Below are positions 11,350 through 37,653 of a stretch of 64,000 nucleotides of DNA, in pieces. This DNA comes from a virus (Duplodnaviria; Heunggongvirae; Uroviricota; Caudoviricetes). The translations under genes and the position numbers were made by a program. Within the stretch, counting starts at the first letter, position 1. Each line of letters opens with the position of its first letter. The DNA lies in IMG/VR virus record IMGVR_UViG_3300044295_000306. One strand, 5' to 3'. The notes beneath the pieces are model-generated. The model was not told the origin of the DNA. It saw nothing but the letters and a program-made list of their open reading frames with translations, and did not search any database.

Positions 11350-11425
11350 CGCTCTCACGGGGATTCGAACCCACGCTTTCTGCCTTGAAAGGGCAGCGTC
11401 CTCAATACCAATAGACGATGAGAGC
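11347..11425 (-). tRNA. tRNA-Glu(UUC)
   Basis: acceptor GCUCUCA/UGAGAGC, anticodon stem CUGCC/GGCAG loop CUUUCAA, T-loop UUCGAAU, G73, CCA. Confidence 0.55.
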
Positions 11426-15653: not shown

Positions 15654-15887
15654 TCATTTTTTACCCTTTCCAATCATAAATCTCTTCAAATAATCATTAG
15701 CCGCACCTAAATCAGTAATATCTTCCTTATAACCATCCTCAATACCATAATGCTCTGCAATATACCTCTCCAATACATTACAGAAAAACTCCAAAGTAAC
15801 CCTATCCACCCTCGAAGCAATCTCCATAACCCTATCCTTCGGCATCCTCAATAGCTGTTCCGCTATCGCCTTCTCAATCGGATCCAT
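15654..15887 (-). CDS. hypothetical protein
   Basis: 77-aa ORF. Confidence 0.35.
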   Translation of the reverse strand: MDPIEKAIAEQLLRMPKDRVMEIASRVDRVTLEFFCNVLERYIAEHYGIEDGYKEDITDLGAANDYLKRFMIGKGKK

Positions 15888-16461
15888 CTACCTCCTCCTT
15901 ACCATAAAGTAACATCATTACATCATATGCACAATCATGTACCGGATCATGTTTATATACCACCGACCTATCAAACCCTTCAATATCACAATACCCATCC
16001 GCACGATTATACATCAAGTCTACCGCAGTCCTTACATCACGCCACCTATTGTAATTAAATATAGTCTCCAAACCAATACTCTTCTGTAAATCATCAAATA
16101 CTATCTGATCCAAATTACCCCTAGCCCATACATAATAATTACCTTCCTTCCTCTCCTCCACCCATTCCTTAAACCTATAATACGCATCCTCAACCTTCAT
16201 ATCACCATCCTGAGGTATAAATGACTTCCTCTTAACCAAATCACATTGCTTATCCCACCAATCCACCGTTCCTCTATCAATATACCTATTCAATCTCTTC
16301 CTCTGATCTAATACATCCAACTTTATAAAAAAAGCAGATGAATATAACTCAGCATAATTATATACCTTACCACTCTCAAAGTATATACACGCCCATGATA
16401 ATATTACAGAATCCGATCTTGTACCTAATGTCTCAATATCAAAAATAAACATCTTAATCAC
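15874..16461 (-). CDS. DEDDh-family 3'-5' exonuclease (DexA-like)
   Basis: Exo I motif FIFDIETLG and Exo III motif HDCAYDVMML. Confidence 0.65.
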   Translation of the reverse strand: MIKMFIFDIETLGTRSDSVILSWACIYFESGKVYNYAELYSSAFFIKLDVLDQRKRLNRYIDRGTVDWWDKQCDLVKRKSFIPQDGDMKVEDAYYRFKEWVEERKEGNYYVWARGNLDQIVFDDLQKSIGLETIFNYNRWRDVRTAVDLMYNRADGYCDIEGFDRSVVYKHDPVHDCAYDVMMLLYGKEEVDGSD

Positions 16462-17373: not shown

Positions 17374-17496
17374 GATATTCCTCAAAACTAGCCCCACGTG
17401 GAGCCCTCAACCCGGTTCCTATTTTGAATTTCCAAAATAAGAACTATACGGATTCTAAAAATTATTATCTAATTCATTTGTTATGCCTTTGTTTAA

Positions 17497-17538
17497 TCAG
17501 TATGGAAGTATTACATCGAATAATAGGAATTCAGTCAA
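17497..17538 (-). promoter_or_regulatory. conserved promoter/5'UTR module copy with no ORF immediately downstream
   Basis: TTGACT-17-TGTAAT then ACTTCCATACTGATTAAACAAAGG; followed only by ATG-AAT-TAG. Confidence 0.45.
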
Positions 17539-17544
17539 GCTGTA

Positions 17545-17865
17545 TTAAGGCTTCAAGGCTGTGGACAGGTTGGCTTTGTACAGGTCGGCTTCTGTCAGGT
17601 TGGCTTTGTACAGGTCGGCTTCTGTCAGGTAGGCGTCGGACAGGTCGGCTTTGAACAGGTAGGCTTCGGACATGTCGGCTTTGAACAGGTTGGCGTTGGA
17701 CAGGTTGGCGTTGGACAGGTTGGCTCCGGACAGGTTGGCTTTGAACAGGTTGGCGTAGGAAAGATTTACGTTCTCGGAAACAGCTTCCTCGACGGCTTGT
17801 TTGATCGTTTTAGCTGTTTTGGATTCAAACAGGACTTGATCGTTGATGGATTTAATTTGAATCAT
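17545..17865 (-). CDS. pentapeptide-repeat protein, family member 1
   Basis: N-terminus [29 protein letters not shown] then A(N/D)LSxA(N/D)LS repeats. Confidence 0.6.
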   Translation of the reverse strand: MIQIKSINDQVLFESKTAKTIKQAVEEAVSENVNLSYANLFKANLSGANLSNANLSNANLFKADMSEAYLFKADLSDAYLTEADLYKANLTEADLYKANLSTALKP

Positions 17866-17884
17866 CGCCGGCGCCTTTGTTTAT

Positions 17885-17926
17885 TCAGTATGGAAGTATT
17901 ATATCGAATAATCGGAATTTAGTCAA
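17885..17926 (-). promoter_or_regulatory. conserved promoter module (TTGACT-17-TATAAT + conserved 5'UTR)
   Basis: RC TTGACTAAATTCCGATTATTCGATATAATACTTCCATACTGAATAAACAAAGG...ATG. Confidence 0.55.
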
Positions 17927-17931
17927 ATTAT

Positions 17932-18363
17932 TTAAATATTCGGTATTTTATCAATCCATTCTGGTATTTCGGTCATACTGCCAAGCTTTGAGGCTACATA
18001 GCAGCGCATTACAGCCACGAGGACGGTAGGACCAAAGTTAAATCTATTAGGTTTGTTCAGGGATGCGACATATCGTTCCTTTGGGTTGGATCGATTTGTG
18101 TGCTCTATTGTAAGGCATTCAGGACTGGCCAGCATTCGATTGATGATTCGGCCGGCGGCTTCCCATTTCCGGCTGAATAGAAGGTCAGGTCCTGTAGTAT
18201 AAGAGCCGTCTAATTCGCCCTCTTCATTCAGATTAAGTCGAAAAAGGGAACCGCTCCATTTATCCACATATAATTGATTCTCTGGTATACCCTCACAACG
18301 GGCCACCAGCCAATCTAGTACACAACCTTCGGCTTGGGCCACTTCGATTTGTTTAGTATTCAT
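17932..18363 (-). CDS. DUF2591 (NinX-like) family phage protein
   Basis: N-terminal KQIEVAQAEGCVLDWLVARCEG pattern. Confidence 0.4.
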   Translation of the reverse strand: MNTKQIEVAQAEGCVLDWLVARCEGIPENQLYVDKWSGSLFRLNLNEEGELDGSYTTGPDLLFSRKWEAAGRIINRMLASPECLTIEHTNRSNPKERYVASLNKPNRFNFGPTVLVAVMRCYVASKLGSMTEIPEWIDKIPNI

Positions 18364-18393
18364 TATTGATCCTTCAGATCATGATCCTTCGGA

Positions 18394-19038
18394 TCATTGA
18401 ACAGTCCGAATTCGAATAATCTTGTTCATCTTACGACCATGGGCCACATAACCGATGACGGGGATATTTTTATCATAACATGCGCGACAATCCAAACACT
18501 TACCGCCTTGGCTCGGGGCGGTGCATACCTTTACACCTTCCGGAGTCGTCATACCCTCAGGAAGAATGGTCGATCCATGCAATCCTTTAGTGAAGGTACC
18601 GTCAATTTCATCGGAAGAGTATCGCACCATCACGTTCGGCAAAGCTTGCATCTGGCCCAGAATACCAGCAAACTTAGGGAATTTATACATACGGGTGGGC
18701 AGCCAGTGTTTGGTATTAGGAGTCTGAACCATAATCTGATACATTTTTTCGGCCAACTTGATTGAATACATATCCCCCGAATCGAACCAACGGAAATACT
18801 TTTCCTTGGCCAAAGCATTCACAAAATCCTTCACAAAGGATTCCCGTTTCCAGTCCTCCTTGTTATTGGCACGAACCTTTTTAACAGCCCCAAAATGATA
18901 CATTCCAGTGGTCGCATAGCAACCCGAACAGGCCGAAACAAGCTTACCATCCGATCCTACCGAACCCGGACAAGTTTCCAAAGCTTGAAGCGACCAGGAT
19001 TTAGTACCAAGCTTCAAGGTTTTCGAAAGATTCAGCAT
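18394..19038 (-). CDS. conserved Cys-rich phage protein (GP88-like)
   Basis: KSWSL..TCPGS..DGKLVSACSGCYATTGMY motif. Confidence 0.35.
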   Translation of the reverse strand: MLNLSKTLKLGTKSWSLQALETCPGSVGSDGKLVSACSGCYATTGMYHFGAVKKVRANNKEDWKRESFVKDFVNALAKEKYFRWFDSGDMYSIKLAEKMYQIMVQTPNTKHWLPTRMYKFPKFAGILGQMQALPNVMVRYSSDEIDGTFTKGLHGSTILPEGMTTPEGVKVCTAPSQGGKCLDCRACYDKNIPVIGYVAHGRKMNKIIRIRTVQ

Positions 19039-19055
19039 GACAGTACCTTGTTTAT

Positions 19056-19097
19056 TCAGTATGGAAGTATTATATCGAATAATCAGAATTTAGTCAA
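19056..19097 (-). promoter_or_regulatory. conserved promoter module
   Basis: TTGACT-17-TATAAT, identical 5'UTR block. Confidence 0.55.
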
Positions 19098-19771
19098 GCG
19101 ACTTTAATAAAACGATTACCAAGAAGAATTGATGCACCCGTCAGGTCGGCGCCGGACAGGTTGGCTTCGGACAGATTAGCCCCGGTCAGGTTGGCTTTGG
19201 TCAGGTTGGCTTCGAACAGATCGGCGCCGTACAGGTTGGCGTAGGACAGGTTGGCGTCGGACAGGTAGGCGTCGGACATGTCGGCTTTGAACAGGTTGGC
19301 GTTGGACAGGTTGGCGTTGGACAGGTTGGCTCCGGACAGGTTGGCTTTGAACAGGTTGGCGTTGGACAGGTTGGCGCCGGACAGGTAGGCGTCGGACAGG
19401 TTGGCGTCGCACAGGTTGGCGCCGGACAGGTTAGCGAAGGACAGGTCGGCGTCGGACAGGTTGGCTTTGGACAGGTTGGCGTTGGACAGGTTGGCGCCGG
19501 ACAGGTCGGCGTAGGACAGGTTGGCTTTGGACAGGTTGGCGTAGAACAGGTTGGCGCCGGACAGGTCGGCGAAGGACAGGTCGGCGTTGGACAGGTTGGC
19601 GTTGGACAGGTCGGCTTTGTACAGGTCGGCGTTGGACAGGTTGGCTTTGGACAGGTCGGCTTTGGACAGGTCGACCATCTTTGCAACAGCTTCCTCAACG
19701 GCTTCCTTGATCGTTTTAGCCGTTTCTGATTCAAACAGGACTTGATCGTTGATGGATTTAATTTGAATCAT
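19094..19771 (-). CDS. pentapeptide-repeat protein, family member 2
   Basis: [29 protein letters not shown] + ~35 ANLSx pentapeptides. Confidence 0.65.
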
Positions 19772-19790
19772 CGGCGGCGCCTTTGTTTAA

Positions 19791-19832
19791 TCAGTATGGA
19801 AGTATTATATCGAATAATCAGAATTTAGTCAA
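19791..19832 (-). promoter_or_regulatory. conserved promoter module
   Basis: same module. Confidence 0.55.
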
Positions 19833-20450
19833 GAGCATTGAAGCGTTGGACAGGTCGGCTTTGGACAGGTCGGCTTTGGACAGGTCGGCTTTGGACAGGT
19901 TGGCTTTGTACAGGTAGGCGTTGGACAGGTTGGCTCCGGTCAGGTCGGCTTCGGACAGGTCGGCTTTGGACAGGTTGGCTTTGTACAGGTAGGCGTTGGA
20001 CAGGTTGGCTTCGGACAGGAACGCTCCGGTCAGGTCGGCTTCGGACAGGTCGGCTTTGGACAGGTTGGCGTCGGACAGGTCGGCTTCGGTCAGGTCGGCT
20101 TCGGACAGGTTGGCGTCGGATAGATCGGCTTTGGACAGGTTGGCGTCGGACAGGTCGGCTTCGGACAGGTCGGCTTCGGACAGGTTGGCGTCGGATAGAT
20201 CGGCTTTATACAGATTAACTTTGGACAGATCAGCCCCGGCCAGATTAGTCCCGGACAGATTAGCTTTGGATAGATTAGCTTTGTACAGATAAGCCCCGGC
20301 CAGATTAGCTTTAGAAAGATCAACCCTGGACAGATCAGCCCTGAACAGGTTTACCTTTAATTTAACGGCTTCCTCGACGGCTTTCTTGATCGTTTTAGCC
20401 GTTTCTGATTCAAACAGGACTTGATCGTTGATGGATTTAATTTGAATCAT
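19818..20450 (-). CDS. pentapeptide-repeat protein, family member 3
   Basis: conserved N-terminus + ADLSx repeats. Confidence 0.65.
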
Positions 20451-20468
20451 TTGTTATACTTTGTTTAA

Positions 20469-20510
20469 TCAGTATGGAAGTATTATATCGAATAATCAGA
20501 ATTTTGTCAA
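20469..20510 (-). promoter_or_regulatory. conserved promoter module
   Basis: TTGACA-17-TATAAT. Confidence 0.55.
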
Positions 20511-20553
20511 GCGGCTGGTTCACGCCGCCGAAGCGGCTTTAATCTAGGCTAGC

Positions 20554-20949
20554 CTACCGGTAGGCTTCGGACAGGTTGGCTTCGGACAGATCAGCGCCGG
20601 TCAGGTTAGCGCCGTACAGGTCGGCTCCGGTCAGGGTCGCTTTGTACAGGTTGGCTTTGGACAGGTTGGCGTAGGACAGGTTTGCTTTGGACAGGTTGGC
20701 GTAGGACAGATCGGCGTCGGTCAGGTCGGCGTAGGTCAGATCGGCGTTGGTCAGGTTGGCGTCGGACAGGTTGGCGTTGATCAGGTCGGCGTTGATCAGG
20801 TAGGCTTTGGACAGGTTAGCGCCGTACAGGTTGGCGTAGGACAGGCCGACCATCTTTGCAATAGCTTCCTCAACGGCTTCCTTGATCGTTTTAGCCGTTT
20901 CTAATTCAAACAGGACTTGATCGTTGATGGATTTAATTTGAATCATCTT
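20554..20949 (-). CDS. pentapeptide-repeat protein, family member 4 (start placed at conserved MIQIKS; track ORF extends to 21102)
   Basis: conserved N-terminus [29 protein letters not shown] + repeats; promoter module at 20967-21008. Confidence 0.55.
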
Positions 20950-21004
20950 CCAGCGCCTTTGTTTATTCAGTATGGAGATATTATAGTGAATATTCGGTAT
21001 TTTG

Positions 21005-21379
21005 TCAAGCGGCTGGAAGAACCCCAGGAAATTCGCCGGCGATATAGCCGTAAGAGATTCCCAGACAGTATTCCAAATAATTATTGTCGCCCTTGGTATC
21101 ATACGCTTGATGGAGCCATTCTATAGCCATTTCACGGCTTTTGGCTCCACAGGACATAAGCTGAAGGATTCGGCGCTCAAAATCATCTTCGGCCAGAATC
21201 TGACGGCTCTGCTCTTCATTCCAGGAAGCATCAGCGGCCTTCATTAGATCATTCCAAGTGGATTGTTTTTGATCGTCCGTGGCTGTGGACCAGAAGGTCC
21301 AGAAGTCGATAGACGGACGAATTCCATATGCATCTTTGTGGAGATCGGAGACCGTATCATTGCAATAGGTATAGATCAT
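21005..21379 (-). CDS. hypothetical protein
   Basis: 124-aa ORF, promoter module at 21409-21440. Confidence 0.4.
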
Positions 21380-21546
21380 TTGGATATATTCTTGTTTATT
21401 CAGTATGGAAGTATTATATCGAATATTCGGTATTTTGTCAAATGGTATATTATACAGAAAGAGGAGGGTTTAGCCCCCTGGCGGGTAGGGGTTAGGATTT
21501 TCAGGTGGATTAGGGACGAGTTCTAAAGGTGGCTAGTGTCATTTTA

Positions 21547-22380
21547 TCAACCGCAAATTGTATATTCAGCCAGGTTTTTCCAGTTGCTACCACCACCCTT
21601 ACGGATGATAGTAACCTGAATGAGAGTCCGTAGTGTTAATTCCTTTACTTTGTCTGCTAAGGATTCGATCAGGTCGATAGCATCTTGTTTATATTGTTGT
21701 TTATATTCTTGCATAAAATCATCTTGGGAGAGCAGGAATCGCATTCTATCGATTTTCTGTTGGCGCGTCATAGAAAGATCAACGGCCATGGAGCGGGAGA
21801 TGATGGCTTGATCCATTTGAATGGATGAAAGATTGGAAATGAAGATTACACGACCACGGAATTCAAAGCTAGTCGGCAAATCCTCATCGCGGATATCGGC
21901 TCTCCAGGAGATAATACGGCGACTGTAAGAATCCAGCGCGGCTTTAAGTAGATTAAGGGACACTGGATCCTTCAGAACGGAATCGCAATCATCGAAAACG
22001 ATGACGCCATTTTGATTCTCATACAAGGTCCTGTAGAGACCTTTAGGCGTAGAATAGCCTTTAACTACGATGAAGGACTTTTTTGTACTCAGGGAAGATC
22101 CGACTTCAAAGGATGCGAGGTCGGAATAATCTTGCATGCCACAGGATTGGAGGGCTTTTAAGACGTTAAAGGTTTTGCCGAGGCCGCCCGGGCCGGTGAT
22201 TACGACTGAGGATTGGTCGCCTTTACAGAGGAGTTGGACCATATCTTGGACAAAGCCGAATCGTTCATTGATGGTGAATCTGGAGGAGGGAACGGTTTCA
22301 AGCGCAGGCGTTTGGTTAGTAACGCGGTTCATGTAGTTTTTGGTTTTGCGAAAGCCGTTCTTGGGTACGCCGCGGGGCAT
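21547..22380 (-). CDS. P-loop ATPase (AAA-like)
   Basis: Walker A GPGGLGKT, Walker B IVFDDCDS. Confidence 0.55.
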   Translation of the reverse strand: MPRGVPKNGFRKTKNYMNRVTNQTPALETVPSSRFTINERFGFVQDMVQLLCKGDQSSVVITGPGGLGKTFNVLKALQSCGMQDYSDLASFEVGSSLSTKKSFIVVKGYSTPKGLYRTLYENQNGVIVFDDCDSVLKDPVSLNLLKAALDSYSRRIISWRADIRDEDLPTSFEFRGRVIFISNLSSIQMDQAIISRSMAVDLSMTRQQKIDRMRFLLSQDDFMQEYKQQYKQDAIDLIESLADKVKELTLRTLIQVTIIRKGGGSNWKNLAEYTICG

Positions 22381-22399
22381 GGATTACTCCGTTAATCAA

Positions 22400-22441
22400 T
22401 CAGTATGGAAGTATTATATCGAATAATCGGTATTTTGTCAA
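22400..22441 (-). promoter_or_regulatory. conserved promoter module
   Basis: TTGACA-17-TATAAT. Confidence 0.55.
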
Positions 22442-22653
22442 AGGTAGTTTACGGCGATATCATATGCAGGAAGTTTAATGCCGTAATTATCAAACAAGGA
22501 AACAATTTCCTTGAAATATTGATCTTGAAAAAGTTTGGCGGTTTTAATATCGTTCTTTTTAAACATTGCGTCGATCATTTCGCATGAGACCATGATTGAA
22601 TTGATACGGCTAGCCAGATCGCGTTGGACTTTTTTCGAGAGTTTGGCGGTCAT
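22438..22653 (-). CDS. hypothetical protein
   Basis: 71-aa ORF; module at 22674-22715. Confidence 0.35.
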   Translation of the reverse strand: MTAKLSKKVQRDLASRINSIMVSCEMIDAMFKKNDIKTAKLFQDQYFKEIVSLFDNYGIKLPAYDIAVNYL

Positions 22654-22952
22654 ATTTGGCTTTCCTTGTTTATTCAGTATGGAAGTATTATATCGAATAA
22701 TCGGAATTTAGTCAAGTGTTTGATTGGTGGGTGGTGCGGAGGAGGGAGATATTAGGTGCGATGAAGTCTAAATTGGAGAGGTCGATATTGGCTTGTTTGG
22801 CTTGGATGAGGGTTTCTTTACAGGATTTGGCGGTGGTGGATTGGAAGAGGACTTTATTGGTGGATGAAATGATTTGGAAGATCATTAGGAAGTCCTTTAT
22901 ATATTCAATATAGGGTCATTATATCGAATAATCGGTATTTTGTCAAATGATA

Positions 22953-23333
22953 TTACGGTATGTTAGTACCAGATAAATCAGCATCGGTTAGATCGGCACC
23001 CCAGAGATTTGCTTCTAACAGGTTTGCCTCTTTCAGGTCGGCTTGACACAAATTCGCAAAAGATAGACTGGAAAATGCTAGATTAGCGCGCCAAAGGGTA
23101 GCACCCTTAAGATATGCATATTTAAGATCGGCGCCTTTGAGATTGGCACCTTTCATGTATGCACAATAGAATAGACCATCTTGGAGATTAGCGCCAGCTA
23201 GATCAGCCCCGCCCAAATCGATTTCTGCCAAATTAATATTCAGTTTAACGGCTTCCTCGACGGCTTGTTTGATTGTTTTAGCTGTTTTAGATTCAAACAA
23301 TACTTGACCGGTAATGGATTTGATTTGGATCAT
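22953..23333 (-). CDS. pentapeptide-repeat protein, family member 5
   Basis: MIQIKSITGQVLFESKTAKTIKQAVEEAV + A(D/N)L(K/S)GA repeats; module at 23351-23392. Confidence 0.6.
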   Translation of the reverse strand: MIQIKSITGQVLFESKTAKTIKQAVEEAVKLNINLAEIDLGGADLAGANLQDGLFYCAYMKGANLKGADLKYAYLKGATLWRANLAFSSLSFANLCQADLKEANLLEANLWGADLTDADLSGTNIP

Positions 23334-23392
23334 TTGTTATACTTTCTTTATCAGTATGGAAGTATTATATCGAATAATAGGTATTTTGTCAA

Positions 23393-23641
23393 TCAATTTT
23401 CGTGAACAGTCCCGAGGTATTTGTTGAGGATCTGTGCATCTTCTTCGGGGCGGCTCTTGACTTTCAATGAAGTGCTTTCACCGTAGCAAACATAACGGTT
23501 ATCTTCAATGAAACAGAATCCAGCGCCAATTACTTTGCCACCAATCACTTGGGCCATTTCTGAATGATTGATATAATCGCTGAATACGATACCAACCGTT
23601 ACAGTTTGGTCCAAAATGACATACTTGCTACGATAAGACAT
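23393..23641 (-). CDS. hypothetical protein
   Basis: 82-aa ORF; variant module (TTGACG) at 23663-23704. Confidence 0.35.
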   Translation of the reverse strand: MSYRSKYVILDQTVTVGIVFSDYINHSEMAQVIGGKVIGAGFCFIEDNRYVCYGESTSLKVKSRPEEDAQILNKYLGTVHEN

Positions 23642-23870
23642 GACTTGTTCACGCTTCTGTTGTTCAGTATAAGAATATTATATTAGGATTAGGATTTTTC
23701 GTCAAGCGTTTTTTGAAGAATGATAAGCCTGGTATTGATGACAGAGAGTCCATATATAATGGTACTGTAGCCCAAAATCTTGTATAACGTAACATCCAAC
23801 GTCATCAAATAGCTTACCACAAGGGCAATGGCCAAGCCTTCAAGATTATCCACACTAAAGAATTTCATGA

Positions 23871-24251
23871 TTAACCTGCAACCTTTAAAAGGGCATCCAA
23901 TACTTCAAGCTGAGAACCACTCAGCATCGGGACTGGCCCGGGCGCTGCAGGAAGATCAAGATAAGAATACCGAGACCGGATATATACATACAGGTTATCC
24001 ACAATATCTTTACTTTCTTTGATCATAAAGCCGGTATTTTCACGAAGAATCTTAATGGCACTAACCTTATTACCATTCTTGATTTCGCTAACAACCCTGT
24101 AAAGATATTCTTCTGACTTTTTCGGTTTATTGGTCAGATTGATAAAAGTTTCTGGATCTTCTTTGGCCAGGCGAACAATCATCGCTCGAAAGTCCAGGTC
24201 GGAATTCATGAGCAGATCGATGGCTTGTTTATAATACATATCTTTGGTCAT
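23871..24251 (-). CDS. small protein with ribosomal bL12 (L7/L12) C-terminal-domain-like motif, paralog A
   Basis: KVSAIKILRENTGFMIKESKDIVDNL resembles bL12 CTD [23 protein letters not shown]; module at 24269-24311. Confidence 0.45.
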   Translation of the reverse strand: MTKDMYYKQAIDLLMNSDLDFRAMIVRLAKEDPETFINLTNKPKKSEEYLYRVVSEIKNGNKVSAIKILRENTGFMIKESKDIVDNLYVYIRSRYSYLDLPAAPGPVPMLSGSQLEVLDALLKVAG

Positions 24252-24317
24252 TTGAAAATCCTTGTTTATTCAGTATGGAAGTATTATATCGAATAATGGA
24301 TATTATGTCAAGCGGTA

Positions 24318-24509
24318 TTATTCGCCCCAATCATCCTTTTCGCCATCTTTTTCGCGGTATAAATCAAGGCGATATGAGCGAACTGGCGACAGAAAAACTA
24401 TTTTATTACAACAACTTACACGGACTTTGACAGTGCGATCATATGTATCGGTATTAATTAGAGCCACCTCAGGCACTTTTGCAATACGATTACAATTTGG
24501 GCATTTCAT
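24318..24509 (-). CDS. small zinc-ribbon protein
   Basis: CPNC...CC pairs; module at 24527-24569. Confidence 0.4.
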   Translation of the reverse strand: MKCPNCNRIAKVPEVALINTDTYDRTVKVRVSCCNKIVFLSPVRSYRLDLYREKDGEKDDWGE

Positions 24510-24574
24510 GTTTTATTATCCTGCTATTCAGTAGCAGTTAATTATAGTGAATAATAGGTATTTTGTCAACTAAT

Positions 24575-24886
24575 TTACATAGACCAATAGGTCTCGGATG
24601 ACGGATCGCAGCAAATAGGAGTATCCGTTGCAATTTGAATCTTTTTGCCTGACATTAAGTTGGTGACAGTCTTATAAGTTGGAAAGTATTCAAAAGAATA
24701 ACCATCCACAGACTTATAATGCCGTCTGAGCTTTCGGACTTCCCGTTTCATATCGGTTTTATCATGTTTATCATACTGAAATGAACAGATAAACCGTTTA
24801 CCGATCTTATTCGGACTGCCATACTTAGCCCCACGGGTAAGACGTTTATCTTTCTTATACAGTCGTAAGGTATAGGAATGTTTCAT
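24575..24886 (-). CDS. hypothetical basic protein
   Basis: 103-aa ORF; module at 24898-24940. Confidence 0.4.
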   Translation of the reverse strand: MKHSYTLRLYKKDKRLTRGAKYGSPNKIGKRFICSFQYDKHDKTDMKREVRKLRRHYKSVDGYSFEYFPTYKTVTNLMSGKKIQIATDTPICCDPSSETYWSM

Positions 24887-24937
24887 TGTTATTTCCTAAT
24901 CAATATGGAAACAGTATACCAAATAATAGGAATTTTG

Positions 24938-25303
24938 TCAACCGATTAGTTTATTATAGATATCTCTATTAAGTCCTTCGAGTTTTTTAACTTTCAATCT
25001 TTCAGGACCGGGAGTCCATGATAGCTTATTTAATACATACATTCGCATGACAAGATTATCCATAATTTGTTTGGCGTCATACAAACCCAAACCTTCTTTA
25101 GCCCGAATCAATTTAACTGATTCATATAATTTACGGTTTGCGATCATGTCGCAAACTTCATCGGCATAAGATTTATGTGGATCGACAAGTTCCACAAAAG
25201 TTTCTGGATATCTTTTGGCCAATTTAATAACAATACTTTTATAATCCAAATCCTCTTGTGCTAGGATATCGATTACCTTTTTATAGGTATTAATAATTTC
25301 CAT
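24938..25303 (-). CDS. small protein with bL12 C-terminal-domain-like motif, paralog B
   Basis: LYESVKLIRAKEGLGLYDAKQIMDNL matches bL12 CTD [11 protein letters not shown] core; shares DLD(F/Y)..I(V/I)(R/K)LAK..PETF with paralog A. Confidence 0.45.
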   Translation of the reverse strand: MEIINTYKKVIDILAQEDLDYKSIVIKLAKRYPETFVELVDPHKSYADEVCDMIANRKLYESVKLIRAKEGLGLYDAKQIMDNLVMRMYVLNKLSWTPGPERLKVKKLEGLNRDIYNKLIG

Positions 25304-25420
25304 GTTGTTTATATCGATTCCTAATAGGATTTTCTTGGGATTCTAGATAGTCGGCCAGCAATCCTAGTGCGGCTAGGATGATACAAAATAGACCGACACT
25401 AAGGATTGCTTCGAGCATGA

Positions 25421-25759
25421 TTAAACTTCCGCGGTAGCACCGATACCGGCGCGCACGGTGACGGTAACAGGACCAGGTTTGCGTGAAGCTTTCTTAGCTG
25501 CAATACCGATCTTAGGTTCTTGAAGCTTTTTAATGCGAGCTTGAAGTTCCTTAATCTTGGCTTCGCGCTTTTCTTTTCGCGCTTTAGCCTTTTCGGCCTT
25601 GCTTTTTTGCAGGGCTTCCTTGGCTTCCTGTCGAGCCTTTTTAATCTGATCTTGAATAATATTAATTCGCGCGAGATTGTCCTTGACGGTTTGCCGAATC
25701 TGGCCATTCTCTTGCTGAATAAGTTTCACGGTCTTGCGAAGATCATTAACAGTAGTCAT
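25421..25759 (-). CDS. coiled-coil basic protein
   Basis: Lys/Glu/Ala heptad-like region; module at 25781-25820. Confidence 0.4.
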   Translation of the reverse strand: MTTVNDLRKTVKLIQQENGQIRQTVKDNLARINIIQDQIKKARQEAKEALQKSKAEKAKARKEKREAKIKELQARIKKLQEPKIGIAAKKASRKPGPVTVTVRAGIGATAEV

Positions 25760-25826
25760 TTTGGTAATTCCTTTTAATTAAGTGTGAAAATATTATATCG
25801 AATAATAGGTATTTTGTCAATCAATA

Positions 25827-26078
25827 TTATTTTACTTCGATTTCTTCAATACTAAAAATATAAGGACATTCAAATTCCACGATACCATTTACCTTAGTAT
25901 ATGCATCGATTTCAATTTGCTTTTGTTTTTCGGCTGCCTCGAGGGTAGAGTATATGGGTTTGAAGGACCAATCCTCACCACCGTCAATGCTTGTGCCAAT
26001 TAGCTGATAGACTTTCATCGCTTCATTCCAAAGTAGTATGGAAGTATTATAGTGAATATTCGGTATTTTGTCAATCAA
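25827..26078 (-). CDS. hypothetical protein
   Basis: 83-aa ORF; C-terminal 40 nt duplicated at 26069-26110 in a 37-codon mini-paralog. Confidence 0.35.
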   Translation of the reverse strand: MIDKIPNIHYNTSILLWNEAMKVYQLIGTSIDGGEDWSFKPIYSTLEAAEKQKQIEIDAYTKVNGIVEFECPYIFSIEEIEVK

Positions 26079-26201
26079 TATTATTTTACTTCGATTTCTT
26101 CAATACTAAACAATGCAATTGGATTCCATTTTAAAGTCAAATTTTTACAGTTTACACACACCCTGTCTTTTGGATCAGAAAAGGTCTCTTCCATACATTG
26201 A

Positions 26202-26447
26202 TTACCTATTATACCATATAATATGAGTAGCGTTATTGGGAATTTCTTTTAATCGTGAAGGTTTGATAAAAATATCAGGATCGCATTTATTATCCCTTAC
26301 TGGATGTCCGAACCCATCGCAATCCAAGAATCCCCCATTTTTACAAAATCTTTTAAATTCTTCGATAGTATAAACATCATCCTCTGTTTCTGGACCAGAG
26401 CCATAGTTACCACTTGAAGAAAAATTAACTGTTTTAGTATAAGCCAT
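26202..26447 (-). CDS. hypothetical protein
   Basis: 81-aa ORF. Confidence 0.35.
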   Translation of the reverse strand: MAYTKTVNFSSSGNYGSGPETEDDVYTIEEFKRFCKNGGFLDCDGFGHPVRDNKCDPDIFIKPSRLKEIPNNATHIIWYNR

Positions 26448-26496
26448 ACTTTATAGAGGGGTCTTTACTTTAGTGATAACGATAAAGTTTGTGTAA

Positions 26497-26715
26497 TCAC
26501 TGGTCATATCCAATACAATCGATTTGGATATGTTCTGAATCAATCAGAATATCACTAGGATCGGTATTAGGCCATTTGTTGTTAATGGCTTCTAACAGAT
26601 CGCTAAGTGACAAAATCTGTGAAGAAGGAATATATAAAGTGTTGTCGGTATCATCAGGACGAAACTGAGTAATACCACGCGAATTTTTTGAGTAGCCCAT
26701 GCTAAAGTATTCCAA
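26497..26715 (-). CDS. hypothetical protein
   Basis: 72-aa ORF. Confidence 0.35.
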   Translation of the reverse strand: MEYFSMGYSKNSRGITQFRPDDTDNTLYIPSSQILSLSDLLEAINNKWPNTDPSDILIDSEHIQIDCIGYDQ

Positions 26716-27071
26716 AACTTTTAAAAGAATAGATCAACATGAATACACCAGCGAGCCCGGGCATCACCTGAAAAATAAAGGCTGATATGAAATTTTTGGT
26801 ATTCATAAGAAAGGCAATAATGGTAAAATAGATACCAAAAACAACAAAAACATAATTAGCCACAGTTTGCATGATATTAATCCTTAAAAAGGATTCACAG
26901 GAATGATTACTTGTTTGGTATTGTCCACTCGGTCATTGAACACATAGGGCTCAAAACTTTCATTATGGAATATACCGTTGCATTCATCGTTGACCGTAAC
27001 TTCCAAATTAGGATCAAATTCTTTAAGGCAATCGATAAGTTCTTGAACGGTCATTTTCCAAACTTTCTTTA

Positions 27072-27111
27072 TCAGTATGGAAGTATTATAGTGAATATTC
27101 GGTATTTTGTC
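27072..27111 (-). promoter_or_regulatory. conserved promoter module
   Basis: TTGACA-17-TATAAT. Confidence 0.5.
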
Positions 27112-27173
27112 AAATTATTTTTTAACCAACATACCAACAGATTCTTTAGCACGATCCAGCAATTCATACAAGG

Positions 27174-27818
27174 CTAGGCGTTGGACAGATTGGCGTTGGA
27201 CAGATTGGCTTTGGACAGGTCCAAGGCGCCGGACAGGTTGGCGTTGATCAGGTCGGCGTCGGACAGGTCGGCGAAGGACAGGTAGGCGTCGGACAGGTTG
27301 GCGCCGGACAGGTCGGCGAAGGACAGGTTGGCGTAGGACAGGTTGGCGTAGGACAGGTTGGCGTAGGACAGGTTGGCGTTGGACAGGTCGGCGTCGGACA
27401 GGTAGGCGTAGGACAGGTTGGCTCCGGACAGGTTGGCGTAGGACAGGTTTGCTTTGGACAGATCGGCGACGTACAGGTTGGCGTAGGACAGGTCGGCGTT
27501 GGACAGGTTGGCGCCGGACAGGTCGGCGTAGGACAGGTTGGCTTTGGACAGGTTGGCGTAGAACAGGTTGGCGCCGGACAGGTCGGCTTCGGACAGGTCG
27601 GCTTCGGACAGGTTGGCGTCGGATAGATCGGCTTTATACAGATTAACTTTGGACAGATCAGCCCCGGCCAGATTAGTCCCGGACAGATCAACCCTGGACA
27701 GATCAGCCCTGAACAGGTTTACCTTTAATTTAACGGCTTCCTCGACGGCTTGTTTGATTGTTTTAGCTGTTTTAGATTCAAACAATACTTGACCGGTAAT
27801 GGATTTGATTTGGATCAT
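27174..27818 (-). CDS. pentapeptide-repeat protein, family member 6
   Basis: conserved N-terminus + ~37 pentapeptides; module at 27838-27878. Confidence 0.65.
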   Translation of the reverse strand: MIQIKSITGQVLFESKTAKTIKQAVEEAVKLKVNLFRADLSRVDLSGTNLAGADLSKVNLYKADLSDANLSEADLSEADLSGANLFYANLSKANLSYADLSGANLSNADLSYANLYVADLSKANLSYANLSGANLSYAYLSDADLSNANLSYANLSYANLSYANLSFADLSGANLSDAYLSFADLSDADLINANLSGALDLSKANLSNANLSNA

Positions 27819-27870
27819 TTGTTATGCCTTTGTTTAATCAGTGTAGAAGTATTATATCAAATAATGGATA

Positions 27871-28326
27871 TTATGTCAATAAACTATTGACATTAATAAA
27901 TTCACAGACTAATCCTGTATCATCATTGGTAAATGATGCATTAGGTACAACATCATCGATTAGGACATTAACTTGGTGGTCAAAATGAAATCGGCAAAAG
28001 TTTTGAAATGCTCCTGTTTTGCCACGGATTGAAACAAAATCCGTAATGCTATCAAATTGCAATCCTGTCATTAGTGTATCGGCTCGCATCATATCTTCAA
28101 CGGAGGGGCGAGCGGCGATATTGACTTTAAGGACTTTTTCTAGTGTAGATTTGAATCGGCGATCAAAATCATCTTGATCTTTTTTATTCCAGATTGCGAA
28201 TGAAAAGATATGGACTTTTTTGACGTTATTTTGTTGAAGAAACTCCCGGACAGGAGTGGTATGCAATAACATGCCATCTGCCCAGGAAGTGATTACAGTT
28301 TCTTCTAGATCGAGGAATACATTCAT
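27871..28326 (-). CDS. hypothetical protein
   Basis: 151-aa ORF; module at 28338-28378. Confidence 0.4.
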   Translation of the reverse strand: MNVFLDLEETVITSWADGMLLHTTPVREFLQQNNVKKVHIFSFAIWNKKDQDDFDRRFKSTLEKVLKVNIAARPSVEDMMRADTLMTGLQFDSITDFVSIRGKTGAFQNFCRFHFDHQVNVLIDDVVPNASFTNDDTGLVCEFINVNSLLT

Positions 28327-28382
28327 GATTATGTTCTATCAATGAATGCATTATACGATAAATTGGTTATTTTGTCAATCTA

Positions 28383-28961
28383 TTAAAAGATACAGTTTAG
28401 ACCAACGATGGTGCTAAGAACAATAAATGCCCCAGCCGTAAAAATCTTAATCTCAGCCAAGTTGCTTGAAATTTCACTCGCTGTAAGATACCGACGATTG
28501 AACAGTCCTTTAAGCACCGGTCGTGTTTCATACTTACAATCATGAAACCGTTTAGTAATCAACAACCACACTGCCATGCCAAAACCAAAGACAAGAATAA
28601 AGCTACCTACAAGGACGCCCAAGATATCCTTGCCCATGACTTTATAAACAACGATAACCGTTACAATCTTGCCTAGTTGGGTACCAGAGAATTCATTGGC
28701 TGCTACACCAACTTCCTTTGCAGCGGATACCAATGCTGTTCCGATGTTTGAACCAAGATCAGCCCAAGCGGCGGCTTCATTGCGAACCGTTGCACTTAGA
28801 TTCTCAGGACTTTTCATCTTGTCCCTTTGTGCAACAAGGGAATTGATTTGTTCTTGACTTAGTCCTCGGGTATCGATGGCTGTAGTGCCACCAAATGCAA
28901 GTCCATAAAAGCCCATCATTAGGGCAATAATAAAAAGTTTTTTCATCCGAAGAATCTCCAT
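28383..28961 (-). CDS. membrane protein
   Basis: N-terminal signal/TM plus three C-terminal hydrophobic helices. Confidence 0.45.
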   Translation of the reverse strand: MEILRMKKLFIIALMMGFYGLAFGGTTAIDTRGLSQEQINSLVAQRDKMKSPENLSATVRNEAAAWADLGSNIGTALVSAAKEVGVAANEFSGTQLGKIVTVIVVYKVMGKDILGVLVGSFILVFGFGMAVWLLITKRFHDCKYETRPVLKGLFNRRYLTASEISSNLAEIKIFTAGAFIVLSTIVGLNCIF

Positions 28962-29146
28962 GCGATAACAGCTAGGTTAAAAAACATTGCAAACATATTG
29001 ACGATTTTAGGTAAAGGGTGCTCACTTATACCAGCGACATAGGCAGTTAGAGCCACGCATAATACGTTAATGTAAGTCATAGTATGATTCATTTGTTTTT
29101 CCGTTTATTCATTATGAATGTATTATACGATAAATTGATTATTTTG

Positions 29147-29440
29147 TCAAAATTTACGGAGAATGGCCGCGACAAGTGCAGCTTGTTTAACATTTCTACA
29201 ATATTCTTCATATTCTTCCTCAACCCTGGCACGAAGAATAGGATTATTCCTGAAATCATTAACAGTATATTTTGTGAAATCAATTAACCATTTTTGATGC
29301 TTTTTTGGTCCTTCAGCACCACATCCTCCACATACAACCAAATGATATTTTATGGTTCGCTCATATTCACCATATCCACCACGTTCATCATATTCTTTTT
29401 GTTCAGCTTTACTACCACAAAATGGACATAATGCTATCAT
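29147..29440 (-). CDS. Lar-like restriction-alleviation zinc-finger protein
   Basis: N-terminal LCPFCGS...VVCGGCGA pattern typical of Lar family; module at 29109-29150. Confidence 0.45.
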   Translation of the reverse strand: MIALCPFCGSKAEQKEYDERGGYGEYERTIKYHLVVCGGCGAEGPKKHQKWLIDFTKYTVNDFRNNPILRARVEEEYEEYCRNVKQAALVAAILRKF

Positions 29441-30926: not shown

Positions 30927-31310
30927 TTAGCGATCAGTCTGTTCTTTCAATGCATCTTCAAATTCTTCTAAGCGTTGCTTTGTAATATTAGTTAAGCAAG
31001 ATGTTCCAGCTAATCCTGCCATAGTGCCACCTTCATAAAAGGAATTCTCTAAATTACAACGAAGGTCTTTATATTTAATCCAAGCAAGTTGCACTGCTTT
31101 CAAATCCTGTTGTTGTTTTGGTGTAAGTAATTTTCTGTATGAGTTATAGGTTGCATTTAATTTTTTTGTGACTTCTTCAAGCTCTTTATTGGCACATTGC
31201 TTCATCTCAAACATTCCCGCACCACCATCTTTGCAGTCAAGTGCATATGAATTTTGAATAAAACAAAAAAATAAGAAAACAAAAAGCAAGTTAGCTTTAT
31301 GAAAATTCAT
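30927..31310 (-). CDS. secreted DUF1311 (LprI-like) protein
   Basis: signal peptide then C..A.T..EL..V...LN..Y......L......L...Q..W..Y.D..C pattern. Confidence 0.5.
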   Translation of the reverse strand: MNFHKANLLFVFLFFCFIQNSYALDCKDGGAGMFEMKQCANKELEEVTKKLNATYNSYRKLLTPKQQQDLKAVQLAWIKYKDLRCNLENSFYEGGTMAGLAGTSCLTNITKQRLEEFEDALKEQTDR

Positions 31311-31603: not shown

Positions 31604-32395
31604 TTATTTACCCAGCATCAGACTATTAAAATTAGCCGGTACCACAATAGTCTGGACCTTGCCATTTTTGATACCTTCACTGATATTTAAAGATGCTTGT
31701 GCATTCATATATGCAATGCTTTGGGAACTTTGATTAGCCAATGCATTCATACGTTCAGCTTCCTTCCTAGCAGTTTGAACCTCAACCTCTTTTCGTGCTA
31801 GTTCATTCTTTGACTTAACCAATTCATTGGCACTAGCTACAATACTATCAGCAGGAAGAATATTCTTAATCAAAACCTGTGATACCATAATAGTTCCACC
31901 AAGCTTTTCTTCTGTCAAACTTTGTTGAATATGATTCTTAATATGACTTTCAATCTCTTGCCTTGAATCATTCATAGTCAACGCTTCATAATCTCGGGCA
32001 CTCTTATATGCGGCATTTCGAGCAACCTGAAGAATATAGTTATACATCAGGTAAATTTCACCATGATCAACTGAATGGAATCCACGATTCTTGGTACCAT
32101 AAATCTCACTAACTTGTTGTGGATTAATACTATAAACAACTACCATATCAAAATCTTTCATGGTACTGTTGTCTTTAGCGATAGGAGTCATGTTTTCAAT
32201 AACAACATTAACGTCCTTGACTGGAAACTTGAGAACATCACCGATCAACACCTGATTAAAACTACCAGGCATTAGTTCGCCTTGTTGAATCTGTTTATCA
32301 AATCCAACACGAACACCAACTTCACCTGTCTCAATTCGTGTACAACCAGTTGCAAAAACAGAAGCAACCATAACACTCATGATAAGCTTTTTCAT
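31604..32395 (-). CDS. SPFH/Band-7 (prohibitin-like) lipoprotein
   Basis: lipobox ATGC after signal peptide; SPFH-like core with C-terminal coiled coil. Confidence 0.5.
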   Translation of the reverse strand: MKKLIMSVMVASVFATGCTRIETGEVGVRVGFDKQIQQGELMPGSFNQVLIGDVLKFPVKDVNVVIENMTPIAKDNSTMKDFDMVVVYSINPQQVSEIYGTKNRGFHSVDHGEIYLMYNYILQVARNAAYKSARDYEALTMNDSRQEIESHIKNHIQQSLTEEKLGGTIMVSQVLIKNILPADSIVASANELVKSKNELARKEVEVQTARKEAERMNALANQSSQSIAYMNAQASLNISEGIKNGKVQTIVVPANFNSLMLGK

Positions 32396-34190: not shown

Positions 34191-34550
34191 CTACCAATCT
34201 TCCGCCTTATCATAACCCTCAGGAAATTCATGTATATCCGGTATCTGAATAGAGAAATCCTCTCTTGTTATCTCACCCTTTTTCGTGTTTCTTATTATAT
34301 TAAGATGGGATGATACCTCGGGATTATTCTTCCAATGCTTATGCGATTCTTTATTCTTCTGACTCCATTCTTCCTGTGTATAATTACCTAATGCGCGAGC
34401 ACCTTTTCTCGGTGAAGCAATCTCACTACATTTCCGAGAACATATAAGAGCGCGTCCTTTATGCTTGATAAAACATACAGGACATTCTTTCTCCTTATAC
34501 TGTCTCCAGTATCCCTTTTCTCTTATCTTCCGTTCCATTGAACATACCAC
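34191..34550 (-). CDS. hypothetical zinc-binding protein
   Basis: CPVC...CSRKC motif; promoter at ~34150-34190. Confidence 0.35.
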   Translation of the reverse strand: MVCSMERKIREKGYWRQYKEKECPVCFIKHKGRALICSRKCSEIASPRKGARALGNYTQEEWSQKNKESHKHWKNNPEVSSHLNIIRNTKKGEITREDFSIQIPDIHEFPEGYDKAEDW

Positions 34551-35245
34551 CGATAAAATGCTTCTTCTAGGGTTTCATTTTTTCGCCATTCACAACTCCA
34601 ACCCATCAATCCACCCTTCCAAGTATTCACTTTTTCACCTATCGGAGTATCAGAATTACAATTAACAGTTCTTTGAATCTTCCTAGGCCAGGGCAACCAT
34701 TTGAACCATTTCCAACGCCATTCTCTTTCTTCACCAGCTAAACTAATTTTTGCAGTTTGTATTTTACCATCCTCAGTATAATGAACAAAATCAATATAGT
34801 TAATAGTTTGAACTCCTATACCATCCATATCCCTATATGGAGATTTTGTGTTTTCGATTAATTCATGCCAATAGAATTCTTGACTATTTTTCTTAGTATA
34901 ATTATTACGCCAATATAAATCACCATTCGGCAAAAGTAAATCATGTCTTACAATATTCCAGTCCCAAGGCAAACTCACTACTTTTGTATGATTCCAATGA
35001 AAATGAATTTCTCTTTCAAAATAAGTAATGCCATATCTTTTAATATCGTAATCCTCAAAAGTCTCTTTATAAGGAGTTACTTTCCATAGATAAAAAGTAA
35101 TGTAAAATTTCCATATTCCAATTCTAAAAAATAACCGATCTTTATATTGATCAAAAGGAGATTCATATTGATCACTAGGAAATCCCAAATAGAATGTAAA
35201 AATTTTATAACGGGATAAAGAAGCTTCAAGATATTTTAATCGCAT
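34523..35245 (-). CDS. hypothetical Trp-rich protein
   Basis: 240-aa ORF. Confidence 0.4.
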   Translation of the reverse strand: MRLKYLEASLSRYKIFTFYLGFPSDQYESPFDQYKDRLFFRIGIWKFYITFYLWKVTPYKETFEDYDIKRYGITYFEREIHFHWNHTKVVSLPWDWNIVRHDLLLPNGDLYWRNNYTKKNSQEFYWHELIENTKSPYRDMDGIGVQTINYIDFVHYTEDGKIQTAKISLAGEEREWRWKWFKWLPWPRKIQRTVNCNSDTPIGEKVNTWKGGLMGWSCEWRKNETLEEAFYRWYVQWNGR

Positions 35246-36624: not shown

Positions 36625-37653
36625 TTATTTTTCCCCTAAAAGAAACTTGTTAGATATAGTTTTAAAAGAAATCTTCGAATCACGAATATTCTTATAAACA
36701 TATCCTTCTTTTTCTACTCTAAGATTAAGGAAAGAAGGTCCTTCCGCAAGCTTCAATAGACTTGCAACAGTAACATCTTTATCCAAACTTCTAACAGTCA
36801 TCACAGGCACATGATTAAGAGCCATATAAAAACAAAAATCATGTCTCTCTCTTGCAGAAATATATATCTGCCGATCAATATCAAAGATATCAAACAGATA
36901 AAACTTCAATTCTTGCAGATTGTACTTGTTTCCCTGAACACCTAGACCAATCAATTCACCTTGTAAAGCAATATTTCTTGATCCAAACACTTCACGAATT
37001 CTATCATGAATTCTCTCTTGAATAGCTACTTTCCAAAATGAATTGTTATCATCCCGCTTCAAATCAAGATTTCTCGAACATACACCATCATAACCTTGAT
37101 TTACATAAACTGTCATTGAAGAACCATCCAATTTTTCAGTGATTTCCCATAGTTCATTAGAACCTTTCCATTGTTCCAATTCATGAACCAGATTCTGAAT
37201 TCTTTCTTGATCGGTTTTCGGAATAAATGAAGGAAATGATCCTCTCACAGTTCCTCTCAACTGAGCAGGAATTTCCATTTCCCATTTGTTAATGTTTAAT
37301 TCTTCTGAAACATCCTCACCCAATTCTACTTGTCTCGGAATAATATTGCAAGGAAGCAATAAACCTTGACTGATTTGCCCACGCAGTTTAACAGTCCTCA
37401 GTCTTTCACCCGCAATATTCTGATATACTCTGGGTTCTTTTCCTTTAGAAAGAAACGATGCAATAGAATTGGGAATCCAACTATCAATCTCACAGTAGAT
37501 AGCCAAATCACCAATCTTATATTCACCCCTCTTAACAACAACCTGCCATCCATCAACAGTAGCTACCTCAATAGCATCCGCATTAGGAATAGACTTGATA
37601 TCATTAATTTTCCGAATAGTCGCAAGTTTTCTCATAATATACTCCAGTTTCAC
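36625..37653 (-). CDS. Rnl2-like ATP-dependent RNA ligase with N-terminal tRNA-binding (Myf/EMAP-type OB) domain
   Basis: N-terminal IRKINDIKSIPNADAIEVATVDGWQVVVKRGEYKIGDL (tRNA_bind-like); ligase motifs EKLDGSS (I), LQGELIG (III), EGYVYK (IV), FKTISNKF (V). Confidence 0.6.
   Translation of the reverse strand: MKLEYIMRKLATIRKINDIKSIPNADAIEVATVDGWQVVVKRGEYKIGDLAIYCEIDSWIPNSIASFLSKGKEPRVYQNIAGERLRTVKLRGQISQGLLLPCNIIPRQVELGEDVSEELNINKWEMEIPAQLRGTVRGSFPSFIPKTDQERIQNLVHELEQWKGSNELWEITEKLDGSSMTVYVNQGYDGVCSRNLDLKRDDNNSFWKVAIQERIHDRIREVFGSRNIALQGELIGLGVQGNKYNLQELKFYLFDIFDIDRQIYISARERHDFCFYMALNHVPVMTVRSLDKDVTVASLLKLAEGPSFLNLRVEKEGYVYKNIRDSKISFKTISNKFLLGEK

Follow-up and report, generated by a model that had tools for sequence, protein, structure and literature searches.

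Which part of the ribosomal stalk protein bL12 (L7/L12), if any, is carried by two small phage proteins that resemble it, and what could the phage gain from it? The question arises from a locus of the IMG/VR virus record IMGVR_UViG_3300044295_000306 (Caudoviricetes), of which a stretch of 64,000 nucleotides, hereafter the window, was analyzed. Two of its open reading frames (ORFs), here called gene A and gene B, had been singled out in a preliminary description, which read them as paralogs carrying a motif similar to the bL12 C-terminal domain (CTD), the surface that recruits EF-Tu, EF-G, and IF2 to the ribosome, and which proposed that free-standing mimics of this domain could titrate translation factors. 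According to the comparisons reported below, the two proteins belong to a family that retains the hairpin formed by helices 4 and 5 of the bL12 CTD, joined to a family-specific N-terminal domain (N-domain).

Genes A and B and the homology of their hairpin with bL12

Gene A spans positions 23871-24251 (126 residues) and gene B positions 24938-25303 (121 residues), both including the stop codon. The two ORFs were confirmed at these positions and lie on the minus strand, a point absent from the preliminary description; the peptide blocks quoted there (DLDFRAMIVRLAKEDPETF and KVSAIKILRENTGFMIKESKDIVDNL in A, DLDYKSIVIKLAKRYPETF and LYESVKLIRAKEGLGLYDAKQIMDNL in B) match the two proteins letter for letter. 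Their paralogy is well past chance, since A and B align by BLASTP with an E-value of 4e-18 and 35% identity across 102 residues. A is the better-conserved paralog and B the one with a diverged hairpin (132.6 and 114.1 bits, respectively, with the profile hidden Markov model (HMM) of the family). The many diverged homologs, together with the promoter and the ribosome-binding site upstream of A, indicate that both are genuine genes.

In the family alignment, residues 4-42 of A (24126-24242, minus strand) form a family-specific N-terminal helical domain with the pattern Y..AIDLLM...DF..M.V.LAK..PETF, and two family alignments place the N-domain of B at the same residues (25178-25294, minus strand). 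The bL12-type hairpin follows, at residues 58-87 of A (KNGNKVSAIKILRENTGFMIKESKDIVDNL; 23991-24080, minus strand) and 55-84 of B (ANRKLYESVKLIRAKEGLGLYDAKQIMDNL; 25052-25141, minus strand). In A, this helix-turn-helix was delimited with the Pfam profile PF00542, hhalign, column conservation, and the nuclear magnetic resonance (NMR) mapping of bL12 (PMC3505967), and in B with PF00542 and the conservation columns.

The profile check that the preliminary description had proposed gave a significant match. PF00542 matches A with 24.3 bits (E 3.9e-5), 1.6 bits short of the gathering score of 25.9, and B with 15 bits (E 0.033); at E ≤ 0.01 it matches 62 of 67 family members, with a best E-value of 3.3e-10. 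When the profile built on A and B was compared with the PDB sequences, the 12 best matches, and 13 out of 18 overall, were bL12 proteins (1DD3, 1CTF, 1RQU, and others), aligned over residues 51-86 only; the remaining five were weak matches of the N-terminal part to eS4 (E 0.19-0.43). Moreover, the alignment of the 67 family members was compared by hhalign with that of 56 genuine bL12 proteins from diverse bacteria, which resulted in a probability of 97.65% (E 2.6e-12) over 30 columns, pairing A58-87 with E. coli 62-91; with the C-terminal parts alone, the probability was 98.65% (E 4.8e-16). A aligns with E. coli K65-E88 without gaps, residue n of A corresponding to residue n+3 of the mature E. 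coli protein. On these profile comparisons, a segment of about 30 residues in A and B is homologous to bL12 helices 4-5, and the relationship proposed for the C-terminal motif is borne out.

Conservation of the factor-binding face

In bL12, NMR titrations have placed the contacts of EF-G and EF4 at CTD residues 66-70 and 80-85, and the contact with uL11 at K95, at residues 103-109, and in the cleft between helices 4 and 6 (PMC3505967). We therefore read the columns of the family alignment in the numbering of A and against their E. coli equivalents. The residues retained are K62 (50%; E. coli K65), V63 (71%, plus 23% with I; V66), A65 (82%; V68), I66 (91%; I69), K67 (89%; K70), R70 (100%; R73), T73 (65%; T76), G74 (82%; G77), L75 (also kept by the family; L78), G76 (83%; G79), L77 (98%; L80), K78 (91%; K81), E79 (83%; E82), A80 (83%; A83), K81 (91%; K84), and D82 (89%; D85). 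In A itself, the K, V, I, K, and R of helix 4 and the K, E, K, and D of helix 5 are all retained, and I takes the place of L80; B preserves some of this set. Thus, the factor-binding residues (E. coli 65-73 and 80-85) are present in A, and across the family they are conserved at 50% for K62 and at 71-100% elsewhere.

The positions kept in the hairpin span both NMR-perturbed segments, which upholds the proposal that the surface of the motif is the one by which bL12 contacts translation factors; the remainder of the CTD has diverged beyond recognition. P91, K95, E96, and G97, which are invariant in bL12 and lie in the uL11-contact region, are not conserved in the family. As judged from these columns, the factor face persists in the family and the uL11 face is gone.

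A hairpin in a predicted all-helical fold

The complete CTD consists of strand 1, helix 4, helix 5, strand 2, helix 6, and strand 3, an alpha/beta arrangement that was not found in A or B. PF00542 covers profile positions 9-42 out of 67 in A and 16-36 in B and, with an HMM built on genuine bL12 CTDs, all 67 relatives match just positions 8-45, approximately, out of 72. The preliminary description had expected the alpha/beta fold of the CTD; the AlphaFold2 model of A obtained with the 67-sequence alignment is instead all-helical, with seven helices (residues 3-15, 21-31, 33-41, 45-58, 62-73, 77-94, and 112-125), zero strands, a predicted local distance difference test (pLDDT) score of 95.2, and a predicted template modeling (pTM) score of 0.75. 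With the single sequence only, the pLDDT was 46. No solved structure was similar to the predicted whole-protein fold of A.

Full-length homology with bL12 was also considered and was rejected. By hhalign, the N-terminal 57 residues of the family showed no relation to the N-terminal domain (NTD) of the 56 bL12 sequences (probability 0.2%, E 0.31), nor did the family tail to helix 6/strand 3 (E 0.38). PF16320, which represents the dimerization and uL10-binding NTD, matched neither A nor B at E ≤ 10 and none of the 67 relatives at E ≤ 0.01, and the N-domain of A had no Pfam match. The full-length model TIGR00855 gave 22.5 bits with A against a cut-off of 84.4 and no match with B. The likeness by eye of LSGSQLEVLDALLKVAG to VSKDDAEALKKALEEAG was without statistical support.

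A and B thus lack the bL12 NTD, the hinge, the uL11-contact residues, and the last strand and, both by these comparisons and in the predicted model, they are not free-standing bL12 CTDs. The idea of a CTD mimic holds for the homology of the helix 4-5 hairpin; it does not hold for the CTD as a domain, as about half of the profile is matched and no strands are predicted.

Distribution and architecture of the family

The profile HMM of A and B was used in an exhaustive search of 1.84 billion representative proteins, from which 2396 hits were retrieved at E ≤ 1e-3 and 234 at E ≤ 1e-10. The best 150 of them, together with three from a separate search with the family profile, were classified according to their architecture (n = 153). 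Seventy-one of these harbor the N-domain followed by one hairpin, with a median length of about 126 residues. A and B conform to this definition, with a length within about 120-135 residues, the N-domain preceding the hairpin, and an HMM match over nearly the whole sequence. The N-domain comprises about 40 residues with the consensus Y..AID.LM....DYK.I.I.LAK..P..F, in which P33 is invariant and I11, L28, A29, and F36 are conserved in at least 90% of the sequences; members share just 23-38% identity with A. The N-domain was never found without the hairpin in the 15 loci examined. A further 81 of the 153 proteins have no N-domain and carry two to six tandem hairpins separated by Pro/Ala-rich linkers, some of them with a zinc-ribbon or a transmembrane N-terminus. 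These tandem copies point to the hairpin as an autonomous and reusable module, whose multivalency recalls the multi-copy stalk.

Two proteins shed some light on how the two-part architecture may have arisen and how it may work. The first is a metagenomic protein of 199 residues (P0044), in which a single chain embeds the N-domain plus hairpin unit twice, complete in both cases; in the first of the two, helix 4 is of the B-like "KLY..VK" variant. On the basis of this fusion, we suggest that A-like and B-like units function as partners. The second, of 137 residues (loci L004/L005; positions 3926-4336 of IMG/VR UViG_3300035128_000037, 58 kb), is encoded next to a ThyX-like gene; its N-domain, of the family type (25 bits), leads into a nearly whole bL12 CTD (63.8 bits, model positions 8-69 out of 72), and the protein also matches positions 41-123 out of 125 of TIGR00855. 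Such an architecture ties the origin of the family to a whole bL12 CTD and marks the N-domain as an independent module; this protein is likely to represent an evolutionary intermediate between bL12 and the hairpin-only family.

In total, at least 71 sequence clusters carry the two-part architecture, in phage early or anti-defence regions. The ten clusters that were checked (six of them family members) contain metagenomic sequences exclusively, none of them named. No full-length member was found by tblastn, with A and with the family consensus, among 50,697 cultured phage records; matches limited to the motif came from Ralstonia phage RSJ5 and from Streptomyces phages of about 130 kb. In PHROGs, phrog_5819 and phrog_26927 (function unknown) matched the hairpin region only. 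A word-indexed homolog search retrieved A alone when probed with A and seven proteins when probed with the family profile, and a scan of metagenome contigs yielded mainly genuine bL12 or motif-only proteins and one family member. Within the reach of these searches, the family is undescribed and known only from metagenomes.

Comparison with bL12 and with known phage proteins

A and B share with the bL12 CTD (PF00542; PDB 1CTF and 1DD3) helices 4 and 5 and the TG.GL turn, which align without gaps, and the residues in contact with the GTPases. They differ from it in lacking the three-stranded sheet, in a last helix whose homology to helix 6 is undetectable, in a helix 5 about ten residues longer, and in the all-helical predicted fold. 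In comparison with the whole protein, they are also without the uL10-binding NTD and the hinge, do not conserve the uL11-contact residues, and are basic rather than acidic; moreover, their genes belong to a phage early region and not to an rplJL operon.

Phage proteins with bL12 domains were described by Mizuno et al. in 2019 in seven cultured phages and in viral metagenomes (PMC6375957), so that the idea of a phage-borne bL12 surface is less new than the preliminary description implied. Examples are ORF7 of Ralstonia phages RSB3 and RSJ5, N4-like roseophages, and Salmonella phage FSL SP-076; the contact residues for EF-G, EF-Tu, and uL11 are conserved in them, and a translation-factor interface was proposed (PMC6375957). 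Papers on N4-like roseophages repeat the bL12-domain annotation. A and B resemble these proteins in being detected with the Ribosomal_L12 profile, in keeping the factor residues, in their frequent location in early regions, and in being of unknown function, and can be placed in the same class according to their viral context, the hhalign probabilities of 97.6-98.6%, and the retained factor contacts, A being 1.6 bits under the Pfam gathering score. The difference is that A and B retain the hairpin only, in a new scaffold; ORF7 of RSJ5, from the early region of a T7-like phage, lacks the N-domain of the family and begins directly with the strand-helix 4-helix 5 part.

The hairpin-only arrays (P0003-P0006 and 77 further clusters, DUF6793, PRK06771) share with A and B a unit of about 30-40 residues with the motif (G/N)NKI...VD, and are distinguished by their two to six copies, Pro/Ala-rich linkers, zinc-ribbon or transmembrane N-termini, and lack of the family N-domain. 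A and B have a single hairpin each and score 20.3 and 16.9 bits with PRK06771 against a cut-off of 90, so they do not belong to the array class. What appears to be new here is a large two-part family restricted to metagenomes, the reduction of the CTD to its factor-binding hairpin within a predicted all-helical fold without structural counterpart, and, at the level of the alignments, a loss that selectively affects the interfaces with uL10 and uL11.

Promoters and expression of genes A and B

A 49-nt intergenic element (gene-strand sequence CTTGACAAAATACCGATTATTCGATATAATACTTCCATACTGAATAAAC) occurs in about 21 copies within 17491-29151, upstream of most small genes; examples lie at 19050-19098, 21394-21442, 24264-24312, and 27066-27114. 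In the gene-strand reading, a perfect TTGACA-N17-TATAAT promoter is followed by a conserved leader (ACTTCCATACTGAATAAAC). The leader may have a separate regulatory role. With about 21 copies of a sigma-70-type promoter, the region looks like a dense early-promoter block read by the host RNA polymerase.

One of the copies is the consensus sigma-70-type promoter of gene A (24283-24311, minus strand), with TTGACA at 24311-24306, a 17-nt spacer, and TATAAT at 24288-24283; downstream of it, an AAGGA ribosome-binding site precedes the ATG of A by 8 nt. Gene B lacks such a copy, and the closest one upstream of it is at 25792-25820 on the minus strand (TTGACA 25820-25815, TATAAT 25797-25792). B would thus be the third cistron, after an ORF for a coiled-coil protein of 112 residues (25421-25759) and one for a hydrophobic protein of 42 residues (25290-25418).

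Genomic context

Nearly all the genes of the window are on the minus strand, as are A and B. They include those for a ribonucleotide reductase, a DNA ligase, a primase, an RNA ligase, an RtcB-type protein, and a tail fibre; a homolog of UDP-galactopyranose mutase is also encoded by the phage. JGI metagenome contigs, the longest of them 307 kb, encode exactly the sequence of A as well, which makes this a jumbo phage. No DNA-level match to cultured phages was found by megablast with the 8 kb around the two genes.

The window harbors an array of 30 tRNA genes (3210-11425) that covers most amino acids and includes the odd tRNA-Ile(tat) and tRNA-Asn(att). In or near this array are genes for an RtcB-like protein (3507-4925), an RNA ligase (36625-37653), and an Rv2179c-like 3'-5' exoribonuclease (15874-16461). 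Taken together, the array and these enzymes look like a toolkit for tRNA supply and repair against anticodon nucleases. A few kb from A and B, we found an Acb3-type CBASS inhibitor (34523-35245, 97.6 bits), a Band_7/SPFH protein (31604-32395), and an LprI-family, lysozyme-inhibitor-like protein (30927-31310).

The window also embeds a family of pentapeptide-repeat proteins (A(D/N)LSx) on the minus strand, at 18394-19038, 19094-19771, 19818-20450, 20554-21102, 22953-23333, and 27174-27818; three of them have the common N-terminus MIQIKSI(T/N)(G/D)QVLFE..TAKTIK.AVEEA, each with its own early promoter. The repeats lift the local GC content to 0.47-0.50, and the overlapping "PTCP" ORF (27248-27691) is another frame of a pentapeptide repeat. 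These proteins could be DNA mimics or anti-defence proteins. In the early-promoter block that contains A and B, with its own promoter copy, is the gene for an AAA-type ATPase of 277 residues (21547-22380, minus strand), which has a P-loop (GPGGLGKT) and weak Pfam matches only.

The genes of the relatives are found among consecutive small ORFs of one strand that have no Pfam hits, an arrangement typical of phage early regions. At one locus (L101, positions 6001-7789 of ENA ERZ1744923 NODE_4, 33.9 kb), the family member P0151 is directly upstream of an RNA ligase (PF09414) and of a 121-residue protein with an RF-1/ArfB-like peptidyl-tRNA hydrolase domain; Gad2, Tad3, Lar, and Band_7 genes are nearby, the last of these accompanying A and B too. 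This cluster may be a translation-rescue and anti-defence module. The neighbors of other relatives include UvsW, HU, an HD_4 protein, and a GAF-HD protein. PADLOC gave no match for A or B.

Possible roles of the hairpin proteins

The interpretation that we favor, although we hold it only tentatively and rate it somewhat short of probable, is that A, and perhaps B too, helps to take over the host early in infection and would do so by engaging translational GTPases away from the ribosomal stalk. Both proteins would be made early in infection, transcribed by the RNA polymerase of the jumbo phage's host. Each keeps the helix 4-turn-helix 5 hairpin of bL12 in a new, compact scaffold, predicted to be all-helical, joined to the family-specific N-domain. 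The hairpin would then offer to EF-Tu, EF-G, IF2, RF3, and LepA the mixed basic/hydrophobic face by which bL12 contacts their G or G' domains. Since there is neither a uL10-docking NTD nor a set of uL11-contact residues, this action would take place off the stalk, where A and B might compete with the stalk bL12 for factors, serve as adaptors whose N-domain links factor binding to a second partner, or work in pairs, according to the P0044 fusion and the A/B duplication.

What is observed here is the homology, a factor face that has been selectively retained, a predicted model made of helices only, and a genomic setting of early and anti-defence genes; it is by inference that we take translation factors for the ligand and assign a direction to any effect on translation. 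Support comes from the early sigma-70 promoter of A, from the relatives next to the RNA ligase and the ArfB-like gene, and from the presence in the window of Acb3, RtcB, RNA ligase, and 30 tRNA genes. All this suggests an interference of the phage with translation-factor traffic.

Several points weigh against this interpretation. The isolated bL12 CTD binds EF-G and EF4 with a dissociation constant of just 0.1-0.4 mM (PMC3505967), and with so weak an affinity a monomeric competitor would need very high expression or extra contacts; the simple titration of factors put forward in the preliminary description is therefore doubtful, and very high expression or an adaptor role is to be favored. The isoelectric points of the two proteins are 7.8 and 8.9, that is, neutral to basic, in comparison with 4.6 for the acidic E. 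coli bL12. At the factor face, B has replaced four residues of bL12 (K65 by L, V66 by Y, K81 by Y, and D85 by Q), so its binding properties probably differ from those of A. Lastly, some membrane-anchored and zinc-ribbon proteins carry the hairpin as well, so that a translation factor is not necessarily its ligand in every case.

This last point leads to a possible, though rather unlikely, explanation, in which the hairpin is a general protein-interaction module with a non-translational partner, either an RNA polymerase or a host defence protein, for which A and B would act as anti-defence proteins or decoys. The reuse of the hairpin across unrelated architectures agrees with it, as does the setting of the family and of the window among anti-defence genes (Gad2, Tad3, Lar, and Acb3), although PADLOC gave no match. 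As for the polymerase, RSJ5 (Autographiviridae) carries its copy in the early region. Several cultured phages with reported bL12 domains are T7-like or N4-like and have single-subunit RNA polymerases. There is also the precedent of MRPL12, the free mitochondrial bL12, reported to bind and stimulate the phage-type POLRMT (PMC3787750). However, the longest ORF of the window (655 residues) is too short for a single-subunit RNA polymerase, the early genes are here under host-type sigma-70 promoters, and the conserved residues are those of the factor-binding face, for whose retention factor binding is the simplest reason. A further view, that the likeness to bL12 is functionless, the helix-turn-helix being kept for folding and the proteins acting via the N-domain or the tail, is in our opinion decidedly improbable. 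The alignment does span just about 30 residues, the fold of the whole protein has no known counterpart, and B tolerates four changes at "functional" positions; yet K67, R70, K78, K81, and D82, which face the solvent in bL12, are 89-100% conserved in proteins sharing 23-38% identity with A, which is unusual for purely structural positions, and in none of the 15 loci was the N-domain seen apart from the hairpin.

We regard as the least probable of all that A and B are diverged full-length bL12 proteins, whose N-domain would dimerize and dock on uL10, replacing the host bL12 and altering factor recruitment. A helical N-domain of about 40 residues followed by a CTD-derived part does parallel the bL12 layout, the 137-residue protein joins the N-domain to a near-complete CTD, the double unit of P0044 hints at a pairwise working similar to that of bL12 dimers, and the best hhalign alignment of the N-domain, although non-significant, is in register with the bL12 NTD. 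That same comparison gave a probability of 0.2% (E 0.31), however, and PF16320 was negative; the Ala/Pro-rich hinge is absent, the high pLDDT throughout and the pTM of 0.75 suggest a single rigid body rather than two tethered domains, the uL11-contact residues K95, E96, and G97 are lost, and A falls far below the TIGR00855 cut-off (22.5 versus 84.4 bits). Peptides of a phage bL12-domain protein were present in 70S ribosome preparations in the 2019 study, but the tagged phage protein gave no ribosome purification (PMC6375957). The probability of each reading was judged separately; the readings overlap, and these judgements are not meant to sum to certainty.

Returning to an engagement of translational GTPases off the stalk, a more specific form of it can be depicted, which we consider unlikely: a minimal stalk mimic, with the hairpin displayed on a new helical fold and the N-domain docking a partner chosen by the phage, so that EF-Tu, EF-G, or IF2 could be redirected or sequestered early in infection, possibly by an A-B heterodimer. 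The hairpin-only arrays would be multivalent versions of the same device, and the takeover mode would be one not yet described.

Phage bL12-like genes have been catalogued since 2019, none of them with a demonstrated mechanism, and a family that strips bL12 down to the patch touching the GTPases, under strong early promoters, offers a clear-cut case for a test. Binding of the hairpin to EF-Tu, EF-G, or IF2 away from the ribosome would disclose a new phage route to the control of host translation and a small, portable factor-binding module; if the ligand is another one, a very conserved ribosomal surface would have been reused for a different purpose.

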